A stretch of DNA of 64,000 bases. It comes from Escherichia coli. GTDB lineage: Bacteria; Pseudomonadota; Gammaproteobacteria; Enterobacterales; Enterobacteriaceae. The notes beneath the pieces were generated by a model. That model worked only from the letters and a program-made list of their open reading frames with translations. It was not told where the DNA came from and ran no database searches. Numbering within the stretch: position 1 is the stretch's first letter; each line of letters starts with the position of its first letter. The DNA is taken from assembly GCF_045037415.1 (NCBI RefSeq), contig NZ_CP173438.1; one strand, 5' to 3'. Positions 24,096 to 24,160 of the stretch are shown piece by piece. The position numbers were made by a program, and so were the translations under genes.

Positions 24096-24120
24096 GCCTG
24101 ATGCGCTACGCCTATCGGGC
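24096..24120. repeat. degenerate REP element
   Basis: gcctgatgcgctacgcctatcgggc, close to canonical REP gcctgatgcgctacgcttatcaggc. Confidence 0.5.
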
Positions 24121-24125
24121 TTTGA

Positions 24126-24160
24126 AAGGGCGCAGATTCTTAATTTTGCGCGCCCTTGTT
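24126..24160. terminator. hairpin between convergent HigA-like and DUF4259-like genes
   Basis: aagggcgc...gcgccctt 8-bp stem followed by tgtttg; shared 3' region of two convergent genes. Confidence 0.4.

Follow-up and report, generated by a model that had tools for sequence, protein, structure and literature searches.

The window, here meaning the whole 64,000-nt stretch of DNA that was analysed, covers the Escherichia coli chromosome around the formate hydrogenlyase genes, with hycE–hycI on the + strand ending at position 23420. Downstream of hycI lie, in order, an ORF of 61 aa, a gene for a HigA-like antitoxin, a convergent gene of 145 aa on the − strand, hydN and hypF (Table 1); in K-12-like strains, the space between hycI and hydN is filled by ascB, ascF, and ascG. 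The higA gene of the window is an orphan from which higB has been deleted, and other arrangements of the locus (L002, L005, and L007) keep higB upstream. Relative to L002, a deletion of 1033 bp with its junction at 23626/23627 removed codons 56–251 of a hypothetical gene of 251 aa and left only 33 nt of higB, the outcome being the 61-aa fusion ORF and a higA gene without its toxin and without its native promoter. The junction (GTGGGCGT/CTGACACG; here and below a slash within a sequence marks the joint) displays no microhomology and is identical in the asc-positive strain L004, which implies that recombination has exchanged the deletion among strains with and without asc. HigB and HigA from this locus (L002 2532–3259; window 23656–24075) also have matches in PADLOC to components A and B of PD-Lambda-2, an anti-phage system, with E = 7e-16 for HigB and E = 2e-14 for HigA, the component B match extending over the N-terminal 115 residues only; no third PD-Lambda-2 component is present at the higBA locus.

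Table 1. Positions of genes, repeats, and junction features between hycI and hydN, with one further REP unit of the window
Feature	Position	Strand	Sequence or placement	Basis
61-aa ORF	23445–23630		between hycI and the HigA-like gene	
HigA-like helix-turn-helix antitoxin gene, 139 aa	23656–24075	+		Pfam HTH_3 E = 2e-9; RefSeq: HigA family antitoxin
Spacer between higA stop and REP	24076–24095		CTGATGGCAGACGCTAAATC; 20 nt, conserved in every haplotype including K-12	
Degenerate Z1-class REP, left unit of REP pair (BIME)	24096–24120		GCCTGATGCGCTACGCCTATCGGGC	consensus match, fold, orthology
Low-GC foreign segment, 595 bp	24124–24718		replaces 15–16 bp, (G)TAGGCCGGATAAGGC	blastn breakpoints; identical L004/L016 flanks
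G+C-rich hairpin, 8–9 bp stem, 14–16 nt loop	24126–24157		first feature of the foreign segment	
DUF4259-like gene, 145 aa	24167–24604	−		ORF list; Pfam DUF4259 E = 0.0084, below the curated cut-off
Perfect 11-bp inverted repeat	24652–24679		AGGTTCATCGC, 6-nt spacer, GCGATGAACCT; 48 nt upstream of the DUF4259 start, then TTTATTGAATAAT on the − strand	
Right arm of second (Y-class) REP and short spacer before ascB	24719–24744		GTTCACGCCGTATCCGGCAC; probable right scar of the insertion	
ascB 3' remnant, 57 nt	24745–24801	−	18 codons and the former stop	blastn and translation
Filler, ~75 nt	24802–24876		bridges the ascBFG deletion; no match in the asc region	
Last few bases of ascG and ascG–hydN intergenic region	24877–25031		homology to asc strains resumes	
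Full canonical Y REP, for comparison	27989–28022			

The REP unit beyond higA and its partner in relatives

The palindrome that follows the HigA-like gene is a true but decayed E. coli REP. It begins 20 nt beyond the higA stop at 24075 and folds with −12.7 kcal/mol (z = −3.2). The Z1-type consensus, which we take to be GCCTGATGCGCTACGCTTATCAGGC, is backed by a perfect copy with a CTAC tail at 34646–34674 of the window; the palindrome after higA matches it at 23/25 positions (2 mismatches), and only these two sites in the window (24096–24120 and 34646–34670) come within three mismatches of it, against 0.00 expected from 100 shuffles. The palindrome thus conforms to its class consensus, and the unit is extragenic, between the stops of higA and the DUF4259-like gene, and belongs to a family present in multiple copies, with further units at 34646–34670 and 27989–28022 in the 64 kb. 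What the window copy lacks is the adjoining GTAG tetranucleotide (CTAC on the + strand, 24121–24124), where the sequence now reads TTTG; the orthologous REP GCCCGATGCGCTGCGCTTATCGGGCCTAC of the K-12-like locus L008 keeps CTAC, and the K-12 copy is a CTTC-tailed variant. An earlier sequence-only reading of this DNA had proposed a degenerate REP directly after the HigA-like stop, and the consensus match, the lost tag, and the 20-nt distance all uphold that description. As the REP-associated tyrosine transposase of E. coli, TnpA-REP, tolerates no mutation of GTAG (PMC8266576), loss of the tag has presumably left the window REP inert as a TnpA-REP substrate.

For comparison, the same spacer was taken from seven other arrangements of the locus. 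All asc-carrying strains, K-12 among them, present GCCCGATGCGCTGCGCTTATCGGGCCTAC, a linker of 0–16 nt and GTAGGCCGGATAAGGCGTTCACGCCGCATCCGGCAC directly downstream of ascB, that is, a Z1-like unit and a Y unit placed head to head, a pair that constitutes a BIME in the terminology of PMC1187871. No repeat feature is annotated in the ascB–hycI spacer of the K-12 record, and the pair was read there from the sequence itself. The window REP is orthologous to the left unit of this pair, and the 20 nt on its left are common to all arrangements; by blastn, the orthology of spacer and REP extends over 24075–24120 to L008 and over 24076–24124 to L006. Two inverse REPs joined by a short linker, the arrangement that defines a BIME or REPIN, occur in L003–L006, L008, and K-12 and are not found in the window, where the second REP consists of its 3' arm only, 595 bp away.

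The window REP therefore resembles the REP/BIME elements of E. coli (Y, Z1, and Z2 units, with BIME-1 comprising one Y and one Z1) in being a Z1 unit at 23/25 positions and in its extragenic position between convergent genes; it resembles them also in varying between strains and bordering a strain-specific segment (PMC1187871). It differs from a BIME in that its tag is lost and its Y partner is halved and 595 bp distant, so that neither a BIME nor a mobilisable REP doublet (REPIN) remains; the intact pair of the relatives is itself shorter than BIME-1 (~140 bp). The hycI–ascB spacer of K-12 MG1655 (L017 1180–1270) merits a separate remark: just before its REP it retains GGTGAACCAGCTCTGA, which are the 16 nt that end the hypothetical 251-aa gene of L006, and because these nucleotides remain, the 'empty' K-12 spacer looks like a deletion derivative and not like the ancestral state.

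The DUF4259-like segment and its hairpin

Breakpoints were obtained by blastn of 23300–25100 against asc-positive loci. Homology to every asc-carrying strain stops at 24123/24124, 3 nt past the REP stem, returns over 24719–24801 with 86–90% identity to the 3' ends of ascB, and begins again at 24878, from where 24878–25100 matches L008 7001–7223 (ascG ends at 7006 in L008). The order of elements in the window is accordingly REP1, a segment of 595 bp, one half of REP2, 57 nt of ascB, ~75 nt of filler, and the last bases of ascG with the ascG–hydN spacer. The replaced (G)TAGGCCGGATAAGGC comprises the GTAG tag of the second REP together with its 5' arm, and the ascB remnant translates as KSFWWYKKVIASNGEDL, the C-terminus of AscB. 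The segment has a GC content of 40.7% versus 52.7% for the window, and its only ORF is the DUF4259-like gene, whose 142-aa allele is named DUF4259 by RefSeq. An in-frame tandem duplication of 9 bp at 24419–24436 (two copies of ATTATCGTA) produces the sequence YDNYDN and accounts for the 145 aa of the window allele, the other aligned alleles having 142 aa. The 11-bp inverted repeat sits between a promoter-like site (24708–24681, − strand) and the DUF4259 start and could act as an operator, or else could terminate or insulate against transcription running in from ascB.

The segment does not conform to an IS, a MITE, or an IS200–IS605 element: inspection of its ends revealed no terminal inverted repeats, target duplication, or transposase, its two internal hairpins are unrelated, and target bases were replaced. 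It shares with REP-targeting insertion sequences such as IS1397, IS621, and ISPpu9/10 the property of being foreign DNA that splits a REP/BIME palindrome (Tobes and Pareja 2006, PMC1525189); it departs from them in lacking a transposase, terminal inverted repeats, and a target-site duplication, in the replacement of 15–16 bp of target, and in carrying as its passenger one small gene, putatively DUF4259-like. A search for a donor with the DUF4259-like protein recovered no relative in the representative genomes of 100,044 species, and homologues in protein databases are almost all from E. coli. The sole homologue from outside Escherichia, 62% identical, is encoded in Listeria costaricensis (FXUT01000007.1; L013 4001–4444), where it is flanked by a GH65 glycosidase gene and a cdaA homologue (DAC domain) in an unrelated context, a surprising phylogenetic leap, given that the gene is elsewhere limited to E. 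coli. In another asc-lacking E. coli draft assembly (L011, GCA_053715615.1), a Mu-like prophage with a repressor, a Ner-like protein, and homologues of MuA and MuB lies inside the 3' part of the DUF4259-like gene (4280–4620) and cuts its product to 130 aa.

The first feature within the segment is a hairpin whose arms AAGGGCGC and GCGCCCTT enclose a 16-nt loop; the + strand folds at −13.9 kcal/mol (z = −1.9), the − strand at −13.6 kcal/mol (z = −2.8). It lies 50 nt past the higA stop, 9 nt past the DUF4259-like stop, and 2 nt inside the 595-bp segment. Like intrinsic terminators shared by convergent genes, it has a G+C-rich stem between converging stops and a T-rich + strand side, and its stem of 8–9 bp is of sufficient length for an intrinsic terminator; unlike them, its full stem bears a loop of 14–16 nt instead of the usual 3–8 nt, its T-tracts are poor, with UUUCAAAG as the − strand tail, and the older alleles of L014 and L016 do not preserve its stem. 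A terminator scan returned 4 sites versus 1.7 expected by chance, and of the hairpin only the inner 7-pair stem on the + strand passed. The hairpin is invariant in four aligned asc-lacking loci; in L014 the stem is weakened to two G·U pairs (−6.8 kcal/mol, z = 0.2), and in L016 it is lost. A search for strand-specific conservation through G·U pairs found that 4/6 stem substitutions, counted over the two hairpins in L014 and L016, keep − strand pairing, which is not significant. The hairpin probably forms a weak 3' end for the DUF4259 mRNA; its strength as a terminator would be low at best.

The earlier reading had treated this hairpin as one shared by the two convergent genes of the islet. The hairpin itself is real, but the junction comparison, in which it is absent from strains that have higA without the DUF4259 segment, speaks against an ancestral element common to both genes. 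Because it lies inside the segment and is missing from those strains, the hairpin was imported with the DUF4259 segment and is not an old terminator shared with higA.

On the + strand, an outer stem formed by CUGAUGGCAGAC (24076–24087) and GUUUGUCAUUCAG (24158–24170) encloses the REP and the hairpin as a three-way junction, with a fold of −39.5 kcal/mol and z = −3.0 to −3.3 in the asc-lacking type, and z = −1.2 and −0.3 in L014 and L016. As a candidate for a larger RNA structure, this fold was set aside: most of its signal derives from the two elements it encloses, the score drops in L014 and L016, and the pairing is probably fortuitous. An Rfam scan of 23300–25100 returned only a chance match (E = 0.32; bit score 22.5, gathering score 60).

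Insertion into the REP pair and loss of asc

The asc deletion has a junction of its own, which spans 24801/24802 to ~24877/24878 and lies ~680 bp from the REP. The filler at this junction aligned locally to the asc regions of L003, L005, L008, and L014–L016 no better than shuffled sequence did. It exists in two lengths, that of the window being 43 nt longer than that of L002, L009, and L010, and the 43-nt indel is bounded by 8-bp direct repeats, ACGATAAA, at 24834–24841 and 24877–24884. Beyond it, the ascG–hydN spacer contains a palindrome with a 12-bp stem (24897–24924) followed by CGTTTTTCC, conserved in all strains, which looks like the ascG terminator, left without its gene in this haplotype.

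A more divergent allele of the DUF4259-like protein (P0054, 89% identical to the 145-aa protein) is encoded in the draft assemblies L014–L016, whose gene order is hycI, the 251-aa hypothetical gene, higB, higA, DUF4259, ascB, ascF, and ascG, with asc intact. In alignment, the junctions of the segment are the same in these assemblies as in the window (...TATCGGGCCTT/GAAAGG... and ...GTCGTT/GTTCACGCCGCATCCGGCAC), and the L016 flanks match the linker-less L004 and L006 spacer exactly, with only (G)TAGGCCGGATAAGGC swapped for the segment. Since L014–L016 carry the segment with identical junctions beside intact ascBFG, the insertion of the DUF4259 segment and the loss of asc are, by these comparisons, to be read as two separate events, and even if L014–L016 are left aside, the same reading follows from the piece of ascB that remains on the right of the segment. 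The order of the events rests on a few draft assemblies, whose DUF4259 segment is ~9% diverged from that of the window; in principle, recombination through the 83-bp remnant of REP2 and ascB could have restored asc to strains of the L014–L016 type.

Among 5426 complete E. coli genomes, the segment was found in 720, and asc is deleted in all of those listed or examined (H1–H4 and H31–H36); ~550 of the 720 carriers are ≥99% identical to the window type, and ~170 represent a subtype in which higB and the 251-aa gene are retained. The carriers without ascGFB include CFT073, ABU 83972, and ATCC 25922, which we take to belong to phylogroup B2. The segment occurs together with asc in 0 of the 5426 complete genomes, and this perfect linkage of segment presence and asc absence (720 versus 0), joined to the fact that asc-strain homology stops 3 nt past the REP, is what could be said for a single rearrangement at the REP that swapped ascGFB for the islet and left REP and hairpin as the scar of asc replacement. 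Such a swap is nevertheless highly improbable, given that half of REP2 and 57 nt of ascB remain to the right of the segment, that L014–L016 have the segment with the same junctions and intact ascBFG, and that the separate filler-bridged junction at 24802–24876 explains the asc loss. The proposal of the earlier reading that the REP marks the event which replaced asc therefore needs to be divided. The comparison with ascGFB strains that it called for does place a breakpoint at the REP (24123/24124), with homology ending 3 nt past the stem, and the islet does occur in strains without ascGFB (720/5426); the event that removed asc left its own scar at 24802–24876, and the persistence of an ascB remnant here and of asc itself in L014–L016 shows that the islet did not replace asc.

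The history that very probably applies is that REP1 is the surviving left unit of a REP pair, that the segment was inserted into this pair in an asc-positive ancestor, and that asc was lost later and independently. Between ascB and the hycI or higA gene that converges on it, that ancestor carried a spacer of the form REP1-CCTT-GTAG-REP2, and a REP pair occupies this short spacer in most E. coli. A low-GC fragment of 595 bp, bringing its own hairpin, the DUF4259-like gene, and the upstream palindrome, was swapped in for exactly the GTAG tag and 5' arm of REP2, so that REP1 now lies to its left and the 3' arm of REP2, with ascB, to its right. A later, independent illegitimate deletion then removed ascB except for 57 nt, ascF, and ascG except for ~5 nt, with ~75 nt of filler left behind, to yield the haplotype carried by CFT073 and its relatives. 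The genome comparisons show these steps, and the boundary between REP and hairpin is accordingly the left scar of the DUF4259 insertion and not a scar of asc loss.

Two other accounts of the segment bear on this history. One holds that the DUF4259 gene is ancestral here and that other strains lost it by recombination between flanking REPs. Recombination between REPs is an established route to deletions and duplications, and the segment does have REP sequence on both sides. However, the strains without the segment possess a complete REP2 with its GTAG tag and 5' arm, and some a 16-nt linker, none of which a deletion can create; moreover, the flanking REPs are inverted and not direct, the GC content of the segment is 12 percentage points below that of the window, and a scan of representative genomes from other species yielded no copy, so that a deletion origin is judged very unlikely. 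The other account is a site-specific, REP-directed capture in which TnpA-REP (RAYT) cut the REP pair and joined a foreign fragment to it. The E. coli enzyme needs GTAG and cleaves single-stranded DNA at CT located 5' or 3' of the REP structure (PMC8266576); the replaced piece starts at the GTAG of REP2 with a CT just 5' of it (GGGC-CT-T-GTAG), and the left junction, ambiguous over CT/T/G, is compatible with cleavage at that site. The right junction fits this scheme poorly, as it lies in the REP2 loop (AAGGC/GTTCAC), where there is no CT and where cleavage has not been reported, and a REP-like hairpin with a GTAG guide is absent from both ends of the segment. To our knowledge, no in vivo gene capture by TnpA-REP has been described, and we consider it very unlikely that the enzyme acted in this way here. 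The broader proposition that the insertion is a natural footprint of gene capture at a REP pair, whether by TnpA-REP/RAYT or by hairpin processing, is likewise very unlikely; if true, REP pairs would be docking sites for gene cassettes that carry no transposase.

For the insertion of the segment into the REP pair, the likeliest route would be a break or template switch at an extruded REP2 hairpin followed by illegitimate repair. Of the two junctions, the left one falls at the GTAG foot of the REP2 palindrome and the right one at its apex, positions that suggest such an event. BIMEs are enriched in segments that differ among K-12, Sakai, and CFT073 (PMC1187871), and REPs are hot spots for insertion (PMC1525189). 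Little weight can be placed on a REP-driven mechanism at this site, however, since the ~97-bp spacer is mostly REP and an insertion that spares the genes would nearly always touch one.

As to present function, REPs located in a 3'-UTR terminate transcription partially, in part through Rho, and hinder 3' exonucleases; their presence between convergent genes is correlated with raised expression of the two genes (bioRxiv 10.64898/2026.03.23.713779). By analogy with these other REPs, REP1 may now serve as a 3'-UTR stabiliser or partial terminator for higA, a role that fits its position 20 nt after the higA stop. The hairpin may act as a weak 3'-end structure of the DUF4259 mRNA and as a modest barrier to read-through from higA; its + strand flank GTTTGTCATT is T-richer and could damp such read-through.

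A small variable site that adjoins the formate hydrogenlyase genes is thereby clarified, and the view that the islet took the place of asc is corrected. The gene order from hycI to hydN takes at least eight forms, which combine four modules that vary independently of one another, the 251-aa hypothetical gene, higBA, the DUF4259 gene, and ascBFG, with a single REP unit as the fixed pivot among them, and the exact breakpoints are usable as lineage markers for strains of the CFT073, ABU 83972, and ATCC 25922 type. The locus is a case of ordinary strain-to-strain variation, in which a decayed member of a well-known repeat family occupies a typical variable spot, and it adds one more worked case to a pattern already established for E. 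coli, that of REP pairs bordering strain-specific DNA.
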